Source of the DNA: Octopus vulgaris
Lineage: Eukaryota
Assembly (NCBI GenBank): GCA_951406725.2
Contig: OX597824.1
Coordinates: forward strand, 88,040,001 to 88,104,000
Direction of reading: 5' to 3'
DNA length: 64,000 nt
In this document: positions 4,304 to 23,434 of the stretch, in pieces
Numbering within the stretch: the stretch's first letter is position 1
Layout: each line of letters starts with the position of its first letter
Translations under genes and position numbers: made by a program
The notes under the pieces: generated by a model
Seen by the model: only the letters and a program-made list of their open reading frames with translations
Databases searched by the model: none
Told to the model about the DNA's origin: nothing

Positions 4304-6220
4304 TTCGTGTGGCATTTTCCAGGGTGACTCACTGTCACCACTCCTCTTTTGTTTATCCTTAATACCTCTCTCAAAGCTGCTCAATGACGCGCAGTACGGG
4401 TATAAAATGTTTGATAAAAATATAAATCATCTCATTTACATGGATGATTTAAAGCTTTTTGCAAAAAATGACCAACAACTCAAGGGCTTACTAGCGATAG
4501 TCAAACAACTCAGTGACGACATTAGAATGCAATTCGGCCTCGATAAATGTGCATAAGCTACCTTTATCAAAGGAAAAATGACAGAAACATCTAACGTTAA
4601 CCTTGACCAGCAGAATGTCATAAAAGAATTAGACCCAGCGGAGAGCTACAAGTACCAGGGGTAATTAAAGGGAACGGAATAAGGCATTCAGAGATGAAGG
4701 AAAGGATCAGGAGAGAATGCTATCGAAGAGTGAGAGCAATACTCAAGACAGAGCTGAATGCAAGAAACAGGATCGAAGCGATCAATGCATTAGCCATACC
4801 AGTCGTGACTTACAGTTTCAATATTGTTAACTGGTCAATTACTGAAATATGTCAGCTCGACAGAAAAATAAGGAAACTGTTGACAATGCATAGAATGCAC
4901 CACCCTAAGGCAGATACAGAACGACTCTATCTGCCAAGAAAAGAGGGAGGCCGTGGTCTTTTGCAACTGGCAATAACAATGAAGATTGCTACAATTGGCC
5001 TAGACACCTACCTGAAAAACTCTGAGGACTGGATGTTAAAACTTGTCTCAAAACATGAAAACAAGAAAGCATCATACTCAGTAACAAAACAGGCAAAGGA
5101 ATATCTAAGTGAATTCCGAATACAACCAATTTCGGAATTAGAGATAGATATACAAGAAACAAGCACAGAAAAAGCTAGGCGCATGAAAACCCGTGCCAAA
5201 ACTGCGGCCTTAGATATTCTGAATAATAAATGGCAAGAAAAACCTCTCTATGGCAAATACCCAAAGAGAGCGAATAATGCAGATATCGACAAAGCCCTGA
5301 CCCACCAATGGCTAATGGCCTCTGGCTTAAAATCTGAAACTGAGGGGTTTATCATAGCAGCTCAAGATCAATGCCTACCAACAAGAAACTACCAGGCCAA
5401 CATATTAAAGAACGGCAGTAGCCCAACATGTCGTGTATGCCGACAACAAAATGAAACCATTGACCATGTTGTCTCCAAATGCAGTCTTCTAGCGCCTACA
5501 GAGTACCTCAGTAGGCATGATAGAGCTGCACAATATATTCACTGGGTAATATGCAAAAACCTGGATTTGCCCCATGAAAAAAACTGGTGGGAATACAATC
5601 CACCTCCTGTGCTTGAAAATGACCACATCTCACTCCTCTGGAACTTCACCATTCAAACTGACAGGAAGATAGATGCAAATAGGCCAGACATTATATTGAA
5701 AGACTTCAGACAAAGAACATGCCTCCTCATTGATATGACTGTCCCAATCGATATAAACGTATCTGTCAAGACCTACCAAAAACTGAGCAAATATAAAGAT
5801 CTTGAAATAGAAATCAGCAAAATGTGGAAGCTGAAGACTAAAACAATACCTGTTGTCATAGGTGCCCTGGGAATGATAGCGAAAGGGACTGATTGCTACC
5901 TAACTCAGATACCAGGAAACCCCAAAATGGCAGAAATTCAAAAGATAGTGCTCATGGGAACTGCTCATATCCTACGCAAAATACTCTCTATGTAATCCCA
6001 AGGTTTAAAACAAACTTTTTTGTTTATTTATTTATTTATTTATTTAATTTATTTATTTATTTTTTATTTTTATGTATTAGACATTCACTAGTACAACACA
6101 AAAAAAAAAAAAAAAACCCCAAATATATGGCACAGAACTTCCAACCTGTTGTCTCTTGAGGTCTCTGGGTGAGACTTGGAGCCAACTTGTACAGACATAA
6201 AGCAAAAGTCAAACATAGAA
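4303..6220 (+). mobile_element. 5'-truncated non-LTR retrotransposon with RT and restriction-like endonuclease (R4/Dong-type), inserted in (TAA)n
   Basis: RT motifs GIFQGDSLSPLLF and YMDD; CCHC finger CRVC..ETIDHVVSKC, RHD, RPDI..LLIDMTVP..K..KYKDL. Stop at 4554-4556 and a frameshift near 4660. The 3' UTR ends at caaacatagaa, with (TAA)n on both flanks. Confidence 0.92.
4694..5995 (+). pseudogene. Open 433-codon remnant of the RT-thumb/zinc-knuckle/RLE part of the element above
   Basis: ORF track; LYLPRKEGGRGL, CCHC and PD-(D/E)xK motifs. Confidence 0.85.
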
Positions 6221-16423: not shown

Positions 16424-17007
16424 TGCTTTGATGTTGTTTTTTTTATTATCAGCAGTGTGAACAATGAGTTTTTTTATTTGTTGTTTGATAGCTAGTGATT
16501 CATTTCAAACAAATAAAATCTGTTTTTCTCCATCATTAAGTCATATTATCTAACGATTTTGCCCTGCGTGTAAAACTTTAATCAACACATCTTTTCAAGA
16601 TATTAACCTGACATAGAATTGAAGCAATAAAGGTTGAAATAAAGTTAAAAGTGAACTCATTTAACAACCAGCTTTCAAGCTTCCCTTCTGTGCAGAGAAA
16701 GTTACTGTGAAACTAAACTGATAAACAGAAGCTTTCATTTGTTATTTTATTGTTTAAGAGGAATAAATATTTGATTCAACACAACCATAAAGATTAATGT
16801 ATAATCCTATATATATTTCCCTATCAAATCATAAAATGCTGCTATAGATATGAAATTAGGAAAATGCTGAAGTATTTTAGAATATATCATATTGTGTGCA
16901 ATCAATGTAGAGGAAATTACAATTTTTGGAGTTAGATAAAAGGAAATTAAGGCTGAAATAAAAATTAAAGAGAGTTATATTAAAATTTGTTGAAAAATCA
17001 AACTAAC

Positions 17008-20000
17008 CTTGATTTCTTTCTGGTAATCTACTAATCCGCCATACAATTGCATGATAAACGTTTTCATATTTTGCTGTGCCTACAGAGGCTTCCAGAAGAG
17101 CTGGATTAGTGCCACTTTGTGTCATCATTGTCAACCTTTCTAGCCCTTTGATTTTCCCTGGTTTTCTGGTGGCTGATTTAAAGGACCCATAGCCGAATCG
17201 TTTTTCGTAACGAAATAGATAGATCCAGCAATCAGGAATTGGAAATCTTATTTCAATGTCTTCACAGGGAAATTGCCCATGTTTTTTACTATACGCATGG
17301 TAACCGGTACACACAACGTCACACCGGTATTCAACATGTCTTTCTTTGATACTTCGAAATACTCTCACTATCAAAGGCAACTCTTTATTGTCTCTCAGTC
17401 GAATACGGAACCTCATTAGTTCAAAATGACATGCATCCAGTGGATGAAATTTAATGGTTCCATCCTTTTCGTATTCTTCAGGCTTCGCAGAACAATGAAA
17501 CTGAATATTCTCCGGCTTGATCCATTCTTCTGTTTTGATAGGTATGATATCGTGTCGACCAACAACTTCTCTCCCTTTGCGCCGTTTGTCGTTTACTCCT
17601 AGTTCTACAAATGGCATACCTGTTACAAAAGATAAACAAAAAATTCTTACTCTGGCTTTCTGGGCGACAATATGACCTGCCGTGTTAATCTCTGCTCTGT
17701 ATTCATCAATTACATCGACAATAACTTCGTCTTTTTGATATGATAATGTTTTTTCTCTGTGAGCAACAATTGCCATTAATGCATCTTCCACCTCTTGTAC
17801 AAAGGTGATAATTGTCTGTTCACTTAGTGAACCAAATTTAAGAAGCTCTGAGATCTGCGGAGCATGATCTAAAATCATGTTAGCTTTTGGTTTCATGTTC
17901 TTCACAAAAGTTGGTGTAATCTTTTCGGTTCGAATTCCAACTCTTTCACGATAGAAAACATACTGAATTTTCAATGTGTGTATCTTTCCATATTGATCAT
18001 AATGTTGTAGGGCTATTTCAGACAAAGAGTAACAAGGCTGAAGCGGGAGCTCCTGAAACGAATCTTTATCATCTTTGCTATTGAACAGTTTCAAAACGGG
18101 TCCGTCGTTTTGTTGGACCAATCTCACATAAATTGTCTTCCAGAAACGGTTACCGGTCAGTTTCTTCTTCGTTGGCTGTCGAAGCATTAATGTCCATCCG
18201 TCCTCTTCCATTTTCGGGTTAAAACTTTCAAGGGGTTCAAGGTGTTTTTCTTCCTCTTCAGGTGTGCTACTCTCTGTCGTAGAAACACTCATCTGAGTCT
18301 CAGTTCTTGGTTCCTTTACTTTGTCTTCAGTCTCCATCACTTCGAATTTTGCAAAGTTTTCTTCCGGTGGAGAATCTCGATCAAATGGGTTTATACGTGG
18401 TGCCATTTGCGGAGATTTGGGCACTTTGGGAGGAGGCGGTAGAGCAACTGATGGCCCAGATTCAACTGGTTCCCTCATTCGTATGGTCAGTTTAAAAGCA
18501 TCTTTATTATCATCCATATCTGGGGATTCTTTGTCATCATCACTTGAATCGACAGCTGCTGTATGGGTGGCGGCCATGGCACCTGATGTTTCTGGAATAT
18601 CATCAGGCTCAATGGTTTTGAAAGGGTCAAAAACATCTATAGGCAAGTCAGTCGGATCGATTGGCAAATCTTCCCCTTTACCTAGGAAAATACTGAGATT
18701 GTCTGACAATGAACTCTGTGCTTTTTCAAGTTCTTCTACCTGACTCAAAAATGGATTAATCGTGGTCTCTCCCATCATAGCAGTTGCATTAAAATCACTA
18801 GACAAAAATGGGTTCTTCTGCTCATTTGTCGGTTCTTGACTGTCCATGTCATCTAGAACATTTTGGGGGATATTTTCAGCATCAAAGTTATCATCTTGGA
18901 AAGGGTTAAAAGCTGAATCTTTATCAAGAGTTTCCATTGCCCCCCAAGCATTCTTCGCTGAATCCCCTTCAGCAATTTTCTCAGCAGTTTTTGTATTGAA
19001 GAAATCTTCATCAAAAAATTCGGCATTGGCAACAGCTGGAGTATCGTTTTGATCTACAAACGGATTGGCACTTGATTCTGTAAATAAGCTAACGTTTGAA
19101 TCTGCACCCTCTCCAGATGAACTAGTAATGTTAGTGCTACTGGTGACTGGAGCAGGATCAGGAGTAATCTCAGGCTGTAGGAAAGCATTTAATTTAGAAG
19201 CAATATCTTCAGATATTTCTGGTTGTATTAATGCACCCATATTATTAGCTTTGTTATCAACAGACTGCCCAAAAGGCGAATCATCTTCAATAGTCTCGAA
19301 CATTGAAAATGGATTTTTAACGTGGATAGAAGTTTCCGGATCAATGTTGTCGAAAGGATTAATCTGACTGATTTCTGATTTGGAAATATCAGGTACTTCT
19401 TGTGCATCCATTGCTGAAAAGGAACTCGGAACAGGAGTTGTTTGTGGAGCCAAGATAGGAAATGAGGAATCTGAGAAAGGTGCTGTTGTAGGCACAGCAG
19501 ATGGTTCCAGCATAGGGAAAGCCGAGTTTGTTGTAGGGAAACCAGAATCTGAGAAGCAAGCTGGTTTTATTTCCTCGGCAAACGGATCAGTTAAAGAATG
19601 CACATTTTCTCCTGAAGCGTCAAGCATTGGTGATGCGGATGCAAAACTGTCATCAATGAGTGAAAAAGGTTTATTTGCATGTGACACATCTGGGGCAAGG
19701 ATTTCAGCGGTCGTGTTTGAGGAAACCGGACTACCAAATGTTGTTGAGAAAGCTTCGTCACTGATTAAGAAATCAGCGCTAGCCTTCTTCAGGGATGTAT
19801 CAGTTTCTGCACTACTTGCTACTAAATCTGTTACTTCCATTGTCAGCAGTGAACTGTCTTTTGTTGATGTTGTTGTTGTTGTTGGTATTGTTGTCATAGT
19901 TACGTCTGTCGGTTGTGCAGCAAACATATCACCAGTTGCATCGGTTGCCATTGGAAACGCATCTTCAGATGTTGGCACAGACATACTTGCAGAACCGAAA

Positions 20001-22942
20001 TCACTTCCTACCCCTGGGAAAGCTAAGTCAGTTTTAACTGCCGAGTCTGAGACTGAACCTGGCCAGTCAGCTTCAAATGGTGAACTTGAAAATGGTTGAA
20101 CAGCAGGCGCTGCTTGGGTAGCACTTAATTCACAAAACGCAAAACTAGATTGATCATTAGCAGAAATTTTAGTGCTCAAATCACTATCTGAAGTAGAGCT
20201 AAATTGATCAGAAAAGGCATTCCAGCCAAAAGGAGTTTCAGATGATTCTACATGAACATCTACTGGTTCTGAAATAGTACTAAAAGGATCAGTTTGTAAA
20301 GTCAAGGGTTTATAGACTAATTGATCAGCAATTTGCAAATCTTCCTGTTTAACAAAAGAAACTGATCCTATATCAACTGGTTCTGACGTAGTACAAAAGG
20401 GACTATCTTCTAAAGAGTCTGTAGCTTTTTTATCTAATTTATAAGAAGTATCATCGGTATGAAACTCTAATGGTTCAGATATTGTTGTGAATGGACTAGA
20501 ACTTGGTTTACTTTGATCAGAACTTGCTGAAATTTTCTCAACTGCTTTAATTGCTAGAGCGATTGAAGCAAAATCTAGTGGTTCCGATATAGTTGAATAA
20601 GGTTCTGGTGTGGAGGCCAGCTTGTCTGTTTTACCTGGAATGAGACTAGTGTCTGTTGATCCAGCTGGATCAATGAGTCCTTCAGATTCTGAGAAGCAGG
20701 CAAAACCAGAAAGTTCTAAATTTGGTTGAGTAAATAAGGATGTTTCTGAGGAAGCAAAAGGATCCACAGCTGCAGCTCCTAATTCTTTATCTTTTGGTAT
20801 ATTATTCATGAAAATATTATTTCCTGAATCTTCTGTCTTTTCGACAAAAAAGTCTTCAAGCTGGTTTGCTTCTTCAGTCTTTTCTGAGACAAAATCAGTG
20901 GCCCTTGTTTCTTGTATATTCGGATTTATTTCGAATGCATCTTTGTTTTCACCAAATAGATCAGTATTTGAAGTAGTGAAATCTGCAGGGGATGCAAAAG
21001 GGTCAACTTTTGAACTCGTGAGCTCTGTAGTTGAAGTGAAGGGATCACCTGTTAAACTGCTGAGTTCTGTAGTTGGCGCAAAAAGATCAGCTGTTGAACT
21101 TGTGACCTCTGCAGTTGAAGAGAAGGGATCAACTGTTGAGCTAGTGACCTCTACAGTTGAAGAGAAGAGATCAGCTGTTGCACTTGTGACCTCTGCAGTT
21201 GAAGAGAAGAGATCAGCTGTTGCACTTGTGACCTCTGCAGTTGAAGAGAAGAGATCAGCTGTTACACTTGTGACCTCTGCTGTTGAAGAGAAGAGATCAG
21301 CTGTTGCACTTGTGACCTCTGCAGTTGAAGAGAAGGGGTCAACTGTTGAGCTAGTGACCTCTGCAGTTGATGCAAAAGGATCGCTTGTTGAACTCGTGAA
21401 CTCTGTAGCTGAAGCGAACGGGTCAACTGTTGAGCTAAAAATATCCTTAGTTGGAGTGAAAGGGTCAATATTAGATGGTGTCAAATCAGAAGTGTCAGCA
21501 AATAATTCAGAACCAGATCTTGGCAATCCAGGTGAAACAGCTAATGTATCCAATGTGGAACTACCCAAAGTTGATCCCAGAAATAATGATTCTGTACATG
21601 CAGGAGAAACAACAAAAGGATCAGATGAGGATATTTCTGTTGGGGGTTTTGCAGAAAGTGAATCTGGAACTGTTTTAGATGCACTTGGTTTAACAGAAAA
21701 TGGATCTTCTAAAACATTATAGGACTGTGTTGTAGTTACTGGATCGCTAGAAACTGCAAAAGGATCTGTTGAAGGCGATGTTGTTTTTACTGCAAATGGA
21801 TCAGTGGACTTGATATCACTCTCAACAGATGTAACAAAAGGATCATGCGTCACAACAAAGGGATCAGATGGAGTTGCAACTGCTGATTTAACAGTAAAGG
21901 GGTCAGATTCTGATTCAGTTTTAATAACAATTGAAGAAACATCAAATGGATCGACAATTTTTCGAACAACAAATGGGTCTGCTTCAGATTCTGGGGCAAG
22001 TTGGGTGACGGGAGAAAGTGCAGGACTTATAGCCGGGGAAGGTTTTAGGCTAGTTGAAGGGTCTAATCCTAAAAAGCTATCAACTAATTCATCGGTAACA
22101 CTCTTGTTGGATAAAGTTAAATTTTCTTCTTCTGCTGCTAAAAAGTCTTTTTCAAATTGAGATTGATGGCTGGAGAGCCAATCATCCGGTTCGGGCGGGG
22201 ATTCAAAATCTCCCAACCCAAGCCCTAATAAGTCTTGAACACTACCTCCTGTTTCAGATTTTGGTTTTGTACTAATATCATTTAATTCTTCAGTAGAGTC
22301 TTCAGGGTAATAGCTTGAAGCTTTCGAGTACGGAATATTTGATGCTTCTTCATCGATTTCTTCTGATTCTCCTTGATTAGCTCTCAAACCAGCCCAAGAA
22401 CCATCAGAAGCTGATGCTTCGTCGTCTTCAAGATTATCACCCTCGTCTTTTGATGCTAATCTATTCAAATTCTGTTGTGTTTTTATGACCGTTTCTTTGG
22501 TTCGGTCGAGCATTTGCTGTAAGGCCAGCCATTCTTCAGAGCGTTCAGTTTTATCACTGAGTGTTGGATCGACAAATTCTTTCGAAGGAGAGGGTATTGG
22601 GGATTTGTGCTTCTTCTTATCTTTAATGAAGTGTTTTGGAGATTTTAGGCCAGCTTTATGTTTCAAAGAGCTTATAATTTTATGCGCCTTTTTATTAGCA
22701 GAAGTTATATGATGTCCAACTGATGGAGATGCGCTTCCTGAAGCAGTTGCAGTTGGTTGAGCAGAAGGAGAAGTTGACCGAGAAGTAGCTTTTAAGTTGA
22801 TGGGTGCAGGTCTTGGAGGAGCAGATCGAGGAGGTGGCCCTGAAGGTCGAGGTGGAGGACGTTTCTTAACCAGCTCAAGATTACTCTGTTCATCTCTGTC
22901 ATGAGTCAAATTTGATGAGTCCTCCCAAGAACCAGCAGACAT
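17008..22942 (-). CDS. stnB: Stonin/stoned (Stoned-B/stonin-2-like endocytic adaptor with a Stoned-A-like N-terminus), giant coding exon; CDS incomplete at the 3' end
   Basis: 1991-codon open frame. Acceptor tttcaatttcAG|G gives exon start 22962; ATG in gccATGt context at 22942; donor CAAG|GTTAGT at 17008/17007. Stonin homology domain GWTLMLRQPTKKKLTGNRFWK, then mu-homology domain (FLSFVTGMP-like FCLSFVTGMP, IQFHC, IKFHPLDACHFELMRFR, SVGTAKYENVYHAIVWRI). 7 NPF, ~20 DPF and one WNAF motif. Confidence 0.93.
20954..21466 (-). repeat. Coding minisatellite: 12 x 42 bp (14 aa, D[P/L]FSSTAEVTSxT[A/V])
   Basis: Asp codons are spaced exactly 42 bp apart from 21466 to 20962; central units are nearly identical. 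Confidence 0.95.
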
Positions 22943-23434
22943 GGCTAGTCCACTGCTCTTGCCTGAAATTGAAAACAAAGCAAGATTATAATCATAAATT
23001 TGAAAAATTTATTGATAAAATAATTGAAATAATTATAAATTAAACTTAATATTGTAGAACAAAAAATATGGCATATTAGGAAAATGTTAACTTTAATAAG
23101 AAACAAAATACAAAAATAATAAGTAAATGAGTGGAAATCAGACCAGTGAGTGTGTTAAATTAATAAGGCACTAAAAGAGAATGATTCTCCCCAGACACAA
23201 TAAAATATGCTTCAACACACGAATTCAGATAAAGAATCTTGCAAACCAAATACAAAGACGAAATAAAATACAAAAACAAACATAATTTGAAATAGGTTGA
23301 AATTTAAATGCAACACTACTTTGCAGAAATAAATGTTCTGTCATCCAGAAATGTGGCAACATTAAGAGTTATTACCACAAAGCCATAACATATACGAGGT
23401 GAGAATGCAAATAAATTAAAGAATCATGACTATA

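Follow-up and report, generated by a model that had tools for sequence, protein, structure and literature searches.

The window, by which is meant the whole 64,000-nt stretch of Octopus vulgaris DNA that was analyzed, carries a stonin gene on its minus strand. The stonin reading frame (17003-23008, minus strand) runs through 2001 codons without a stop and without any N. The product, a protein of 2078 amino acids, is encoded by a 5.9-kb exon, which is stop-free over its coding part from ATG to donor (17008-22942, minus strand), and by one distal exon. The distal exon, matched at G000:C11:88037806-88038024, lies outside the window, 18,981 nt from the donor, and contributes the last 98 residues across a phase-1 junction. 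Residue numbers follow the window protein (P0001), in which the start methionine is residue 2. No stop lies between the acceptor and the start methionine (22943-22962), and an additional coding exon upstream may give a longer isoform; the Lingula protein P0123 has a 430-residue extension ahead of the helix described below. An open reading frame of 462 codons within the 19-kb intron (4607-5995, plus strand), with a weak zf-RVT match (E of 1.5e-4, below the cut-off), resembles the 3' portion of a non-LTR retrotransposon.

Contigs from four runs of four studies, whose RNA nature is a guess that rests on the contigs ending at splice sites, none of the listed runs being recorded as RNA, covered positions 17006-21183 and about 21300-22962 of the large exon with no listed indels. 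In all four runs the contigs continued 386-620 nt beyond the donor in unlike sequence, in two of them also beyond the acceptor, and the intron bin had no contig cover. The contigs broke at the 42-nt tandem repeat (21084-21414) in every run, and in one run again near 18458; because of the break at the repeat, no single contig record from these runs joins the helix and the stonin-homology domain (SHD) in O. vulgaris. A single 7,420-nt contig of the close relative P0003 encodes an entire 2085-aa product, including the spliced last exon, and P0002 agrees with a continuous stonin frame. As to transcripts that splice the two halves apart, a possibility raised by the initial annotation, contigs, which drop rare forms, showed no branch at Met988 in any of the four runs, and a common alternative splice at this position is without support.

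Table 1. Features of the stonin gene in the window (positions in the window; residues of the window protein)
Feature	Position	Strand	Basis or remark
Large coding exon, stonin	17008..22962	-	AG acceptor directly before 22962; ATG at 22942; GT donor directly after 17008 (17007-17006); contigs of four runs
Lys-rich patch, residues 85-114	22604..22693	-	Putative counterpart of the Stoned A Lys-rich N-terminus; low complexity
EEW..KTQ helix, residues 136-163	22457..22540	-	Profiles, shuffles, hhalign
DPF/DLF-rich disordered tract, residues 323-730	20756..21979	-	Lineage-specific expansion
42-nt tandem repeat, 7.9 copies	21084..21414	-	Codes for 14-residue DPF/DLF units
In-frame AUG desert, residues 167-987	19985..22447	-	1 Met in 821 residues; ATG per frame 1/14/1
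Met988, predicted internal start	19982..19984	-	Shared with both closest relatives; A at -3
NPF cluster, 7 motifs, residues 1196-1521	18383..19360	-	Motif count
SHD, about residues 1580-1727	17765..18208	-	About 70% identity to mollusc stoned-B; boundary approximate
Mu-homology domain, first part	17006..17764	-	PF00928, E of 4.6e-34; completed by the distal exon

The Drosophila stoned gene is dicistronic, giving Stoned A, with DPF motifs, and Stoned B, with NPF motifs, the SHD and the mu-homology domain (MHD). The initial annotation had described the octopus frame as a Lys-rich stretch followed by the EEW helix, DPF motifs, NPF motifs, SHD and MHD without a stop, and this order was borne out over the 2001 stop-free codons, with 20 DPF and 7 NPF motifs in the open reading frame. 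The features of stonin/Stoned B are present, namely an SHD followed by a C-terminal MHD and a disordered N-terminal part with NPF and AP2-ear motifs. Over residues 1580-1980, identity is 50-52% to insect and about 70% to mollusc proteins named stoned-B; the non-insect stonin of this kind is already annotated as stoned-B(-like), and the tree groups the window protein with molluscs. Pfam scans found PF00928 (residues 1728-1979) and nothing else in the window protein, and no domain in one named Stoned A. The window gene is thus a stonin by membership and is Stoned-A-like in its front module only. In this module the DPF/DLF motifs of the disordered tract are likely AP2 alpha-ear motifs, and the EEW..KTQ region is predicted by AlphaFold2 to be a single helix with a pLDDT of 97-98 in its core. 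The Lys-rich stretch quoted originally (22604-22663, minus strand, residues 95-114) belongs to a low-complexity patch that is weak alone and was not used by itself as proof of homology.

The helix is widespread among stonins. The search found 383 stonins of 1089-3465 aa, of which 120 were listed, 86 of those from outside insects; proteins without a name were grouped by their similarity, and the terms "cephalopod" for P0002 and P0003 and "mite-like" for some of the loci below are inferred assignments. Among the matches listed, the helix scored at least 20 bits in 85 of the 86 non-insect stonins and was found in 65 of the 66 that had been held out of the profile. The helix-bearing groups are molluscs, nemerteans, chelicerates and myriapods, together with one named annelid and one brachiopod; P0081 lacks the helix and looks 5'-truncated. 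Against a profile of non-cephalopod lophotrochozoans, the window helix scored 44.3 bits (per-sequence E of 4.7e-16), a score reached by none of 1000 plain and none of 1000 heptad-preserving shuffles, and reversed proteins scored at most 1.8 bits. A word-index search with residues 80-200 matched only the two closest relatives.

A library search with the non-insect helix profile gave 45 hits, 44 of which were single-stretch stonin-like matches; those that could be named included proteins from Lingula (a brachiopod), Owenia (an annelid), Nymphon (a sea spider), Tachypleus (a horseshoe crab) and Stegodyphus (a spider). The 45th match, P0122, was discarded as a spurious match to a heptad repeat. 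No nameable deuterostome or nematode protein was among these matches, most of the new ones being unnamed, and no insect protein was found in this search at E ≤ 1e-3. In the ENA proteins P0043 (3254 aa) and P0294 (3319 aa) the helix lies far inside the stonin, near residue 1113 in P0043, where Leu replaces the usual Met. The expectation that other molluscs would share the helix held. The apparent A+B fusion protein of the initial annotation has the continuous frame ascribed to it, but it is not unusual: the unsplit, helix-carrying form is the ordinary protostome stonin and not a new fusion.

The first half of the protein is nearly devoid of methionine. The window protein has 1 Met in residues 167-987 compared to 22 in residues 988-1587 (600 residues), and the counts before and after the corresponding boundary are 0 in 732 and 23 in 693 residues in P0002 and 0 in 726 and 21 in 689 residues in P0003. 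An asymmetry as extreme was found in none of 2000 permutations for each of the three proteins, with the change point refitted every time; these cephalopod-like proteins are not independent samples. The boundary Met aligns in all three even though the surrounding region is only 42-44% identical. At the downstream rate about 30 Met would be expected over residues 167-987, and only two internal Met precede Met988, Met145 in the helix and Met713. DPF-rich spans in three other molluscs contain 4-21 Met, and most other lophotrochozoans have no Met desert (median longest Met-free run, 182 residues). An extreme AUG desert occurs in P0043 and P0294, which have no Met between residue 1 and residues 1947 and 2009, respectively; 1945 Met-free residues were counted for this lineage.

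A comparable pattern was observed in arthropods. Met-Ser-Asn-Pro-Phe is present in 19 of the 33 non-insect arthropod stonins at the point where insect Stoned B begins. Among the 19 chelicerate stonins with this motif, 18 have no internal Met upstream of it, and the remaining one has two, both in an N-terminal extension, compared to 1 in 14 free of upstream Met among stonins without the motif, the other 13 having 1-6. Similarly, 55 of 60 full-length Stoned A proteins have no internal Met. This is in line with a rule for stoned and snapin given in the available text of PMC3372440 with reference to Wall et al. 2005, by which translation of the second open reading frame is attenuated when the first contains in-frame AUGs. 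The helix column at EEW+8 is Met in 55 of the 56 lophotrochozoan proteins scored, Leu in all 33 chelicerate and myriapod proteins, and Leu or Ile in all 120 listed insect proteins, as expected if arthropods purged an in-frame AUG there.

Because the N-terminal half has almost no in-frame AUGs up to the conserved Met988, a dual product is likely: one mRNA would give both the 2078-aa protein and a B-only protein of about 1090 aa from Met988. On balance, we slightly favor such an internal start beside the long form, a prediction drawn from the Met pattern. The strongest competing explanation, less probable but deserving of serious consideration, accepts a single ancestral open reading frame and fission in insects but holds that the window gene makes the long protein only, the desert being due to composition or repeat expansion, or that an internal promoter supplies the short form. 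Met145 and Met713 do remain in frame, the desert is partly tandem repeat, and Asn is also less frequent before the boundary (2.4 versus 5.2%). However, the 328 residues of the desert outside the repeat (660-987) contain a single Met, out-of-frame ATGs are retained upstream of Met988, and Leu, Ile and Val are not depleted. An internal promoter has a precedent in the short UNC-41B of Caenorhabditis elegans, which comes from a shorter transcript according to the available text of PMC3393740, but it would not require the loss of upstream AUGs. The same pattern ahead of an internal Met in chelicerates also speaks against a long-only product.

The split and unsplit states of the gene can be read directly in DNA. 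There were 34 metagenome loci found, and those that reached the A|B boundary were read. In all five loci on the insect side (L003, L019, L025, L028 and L030), a stop is followed by a new ATG 7-385 nt on; L030 is sister to insects in the tree and is still split. Because the split is common to these five loci, one of them outside insects proper, it predates flies; it is pan-insect and much older than flies. The mite-like loci L006 and L007, which have identical sequences, and L009 are also split, with gaps of 16 and 20 nt and a frame change. At L006:8005-8056 (the same in L007) and L009:1333-1418 the stop, gap and new ATG lie exactly at the insect A|B boundary. These loci likely represent a second, independent dicistronic stoned. 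The mite-like loci L017 and L008 are continuous and open, respectively, across the boundary. Splicing could create a split in L008, where removal of a 62-nt candidate GT-AG intron (L008:7226-7287) would introduce a stop ahead of the internal Met. In-frame GT-AG introns across the split junctions of six loci numbered 4-18 per locus by chance, and none passed the consensus filter.

Continuous open reading frames were found in molluscs, nemerteans, a brachiopod, an annelid, the arthropod outgroup P0143, ticks, scorpions, spiders, horseshoe crabs and myriapods. One ancestral open reading frame is therefore the simplest reading of the continuous lophotrochozoans and P0143, with the direction of change inferred from this distribution. 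The suggestion in the initial annotation that an ancestral protostome open reading frame was split by the fly thus survives as to the single ancestral frame but not as to the fly. A dicistronic ancestor of arthropods (or protostomes), with continuous frames arising later by repeated loss of the stop, is unlikely. The split state of insects, the sister locus L030 and the mite-like loci, together with the AUG-free signature retained in chelicerates, would fit such an ancestor, but continuous frames in groups from molluscs to myriapods would need many fusions. The maximum-likelihood tree (IQ-TREE; 36 rows chosen, without 8 loci of <200 aligned columns, L017 among them) nests L006, L008 and L009 within chelicerates with support of 98/95, which also speaks against a dicistronic ancestor, although grouping the mite-like loci with insects was not rejected by the AU test (P = 0.151). 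Two independent splits are likely, and the gene tree alone is insufficient to establish them.

The relationship of the front module to insect Stoned A was evaluated with a set of 196 stand-alone insect proteins, 120 of them listed and many named stoned-A; the closest dipteran included was Chironomus (P0236). The window helix is identical to 19 named insect proteins from this set and their relatives at only 7-9 of 28 positions. A direct comparison, as originally proposed, gave no significant match: a profile of insect Stoned A alone gave the window protein 0.5 bits, matched by 22 of 1000 plain and 130 of 1000 heptad-preserving shuffles. The alignment with the Stoned A helix was recovered by way of chelicerates and myriapods. 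The profile of non-cephalopod lophotrochozoans scored a median of 36.9 bits on chelicerates and myriapods, and the chelicerate and myriapod profile scored a median of 24.9 bits on named Stoned A, with the best domain falling on the helix in all 18 named Stoned A proteins and in none of the 15 stand-alone Stoned B proteins. At library scale, the chelicerate and myriapod profile of N-terminus and helix found 20 of the 120 listed insect Stoned A proteins at E ≤ 1e-3; the best match, on a protein named stoned-A, had an E of 4.7e-6. Alignment by hhalign was in register, at 94.9% for the lophotrochozoan and 97.7% for the chelicerate helix versus Stoned A.

Other searches were negative or gave leads only. 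The reverse search with the Stoned A N-terminus profile found none of 25 chelicerates and myriapods at a library E ≤ 1e-3 (best, 0.015), and the non-insect helix profile found none of the 120 listed insect Stoned A proteins even at E ≤ 1. ESM Atlas ranked Stoned A first or second at 0.78, which is a lead only. No PDB chain matched the helix profile below an E of 0.002, and five rows of coiled-coil-type chains were taken as chance matches. The octopus genome itself, searched with an insect Stoned A under a strict initial filter, yielded no match, a negative that carries no weight.

The DPF-rich region had been offered as a further Stoned A feature, and this did not hold. The Stoned A DPFDT repeat profile scored a median of 13.8 bits on chelicerates and myriapods, and a DPFDT core lies between the helix and the first NPF in all 33 non-insect arthropod proteins. 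However, the DPFDT..PGK.ELK repeat is absent from the window protein (repeat profile, 0.5 bits), PG[KR]xE[LI][KR] occurs in 0 of 85 non-insect proteins, and the median DPF count in 60 lophotrochozoan stonins is 2. The DPF tract of the window is a lineage expansion and not the Stoned A repeat.

These comparisons support homology of the window helix to the N-terminal helix of Stoned A, with chelicerates and myriapods as the link. It is very improbable that the match reflects convergence of short amphipathic helices, Stoned A being an unrelated insect gene upstream of Stoned B. The shared piece is short (about 35 residues) and amphipathic, and the direct window-to-insect score is not significant. 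The lophotrochozoan-only profile reached at most 12.9 bits on Stoned A, about what the unrelated heptad-repeat decoy P0122 reached (12.1 bits); because a decoy coiled coil scores 12-16 bits, the direct lophotrochozoan-to-insect score proves nothing alone. Published accounts, as far as their available text goes, would also favor convergence: Stoned A is described as having no homology outside insects (PMC3373503), as present only in insects and without similarity to UNC-41 beyond DPF motifs (PMC3393740), and as lacking detected homologues and being "structurally unrelated" to Stoned B (PMC2174325). Against convergence, the step from chelicerates and myriapods to Stoned A is significant at library scale, the parts occur in the same order directly upstream of the same NPF-SHD-MHD arrangement, and the DPFDT motif and AUG-free signature are common to both. 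A Stoned A-related helix outside insects goes against the papers that call Stoned A insect-only. The available text of PMC2374702, PMC5649181 and PMC4528330 added nothing on the origin of stoned. Literature searches yielded no paper on an unsplit stoned or on fission; the original stoned papers and a 2010 review were beyond their scope, and a prior mention is possible.

Among insect proteins, 19 long models (within P0086-P0121) of about 2100 aa called stoned-B consist of Stoned A and Stoned B joined at ragged junctions, and in the L003 cluster the same ant species contribute fused models as well as proteins named Stoned A and proteins named Stoned B. At L003:9613-10001 the stop codon of Stoned A coincides in part with a potential GT donor. 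These models are probably gene-model joins of two cistrons, with a real splice fusion as the alternative. That the octopus frame is an assembly or annotation artifact of the same kind is scarcely credible, since, even though none of the contigs covers the window exon from end to end, the frame lies in a single genomic exon with no indel or stop difference in four studies, P0003 is continuous on one contig and P0002 agrees.

We therefore consider it probable (roughly 0.8) that the window carries a continuous stonin with a helix homologous to that of Stoned A and that Stoned A and Stoned B derive from one split protostome gene, likely divided at the internal start. Fission is the most likely origin of insect Stoned A. 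A stop gained just ahead of a Met such as Met988 would yield the insect arrangement. More tentatively, with somewhat less than an even chance, the unsplit stonin was already functionally dicistronic, with the AUG-free front kept, and insects and some mites then gained only a stop codon. The AUG-free state would have arisen or persisted in cephalopods, most chelicerates and the P0043/P0294 lineage.

The most likely role of the window protein is that of a synaptic endocytic adaptor that joins synaptotagmin to AP2 and EH-domain scaffolds. The MHD would likely bind synaptotagmin, the DPF motifs the AP2 alpha-ear and the NPF motifs EH-domain proteins, three binding roles that are established for the stonin family. 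The helix is predicted to provide a second contact, with the synaptotagmin C2B domain, of the type demonstrated for the coiled coil of fly Stoned A. In the available text of PMC3373503, the coiled coil that follows the Lys-rich domain of fly Stoned A binds synaptotagmin-1 C2B, and fly STNB binds synaptotagmin through its MHD. The helix is likely the synaptotagmin-binding coiled-coil domain (CCD) of the fly papers.

The role of Stoned A was called elusive in one of the three accounts cited above (PMC3373503, PMC3393740 and PMC2174325, available text). If Stoned A is the detached front of an ancient stonin, its function can be understood within a single adaptor, with the conserved helix as a defined object to test. 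A textbook case of a dicistronic mRNA in animals would gain a concrete, testable history of its origin, with living intermediates that are unsplit without the signature (bivalves and spiders) or unsplit with an AUG-free front and an internal Met (the window gene, ticks, scorpions and horseshoe crabs), and with the split end state in insects and some mite-like loci. If the unsplit gene was functionally dicistronic, there would be a traceable route from a gene to a dicistronic mRNA by fission, taken repeatedly at the same place. The comparison also flags the insect stoned-B database models of about 2100 aa as probable two-cistron joins.

Compared to known systems, the window protein shares NPF motifs, the SHD and a C-terminal MHD with Stoned B and the stonin family (UNC-41, stonin 1 and stonin 2), but it is twice as long as insect Stoned B and adds the Lys-rich patch, the helix, which is present in 0 of 15 short insect Stoned B proteins, and DPF motifs. 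Like insect Stoned A, it has a Lys-rich N-terminus followed by the EEW..KTQ helix, with DPF motifs downstream and few in-frame AUGs; unlike Stoned A, it lacks the DPFDT..PGK.ELK repeat and a stop before the B part, and its helix keeps the Met that is Leu or Ile in arthropods. C. elegans unc-41A/B resembles the window gene in being one stonin gene with DPF motifs that has long and short forms, but its short form comes from a shorter transcript and not from an internal start such as that predicted here (PMC3393740, available text). As in Drosophila stoned and snapin, the upstream region is poor in in-frame AUGs, tolerates out-of-frame AUGs and is followed by a start in good context. Unlike these genes, the window locus does not have two separate open reading frames or a first cistron that ends in a stop; its second start is predicted in frame, so that both starts would share a single open frame uninterrupted by a stop.
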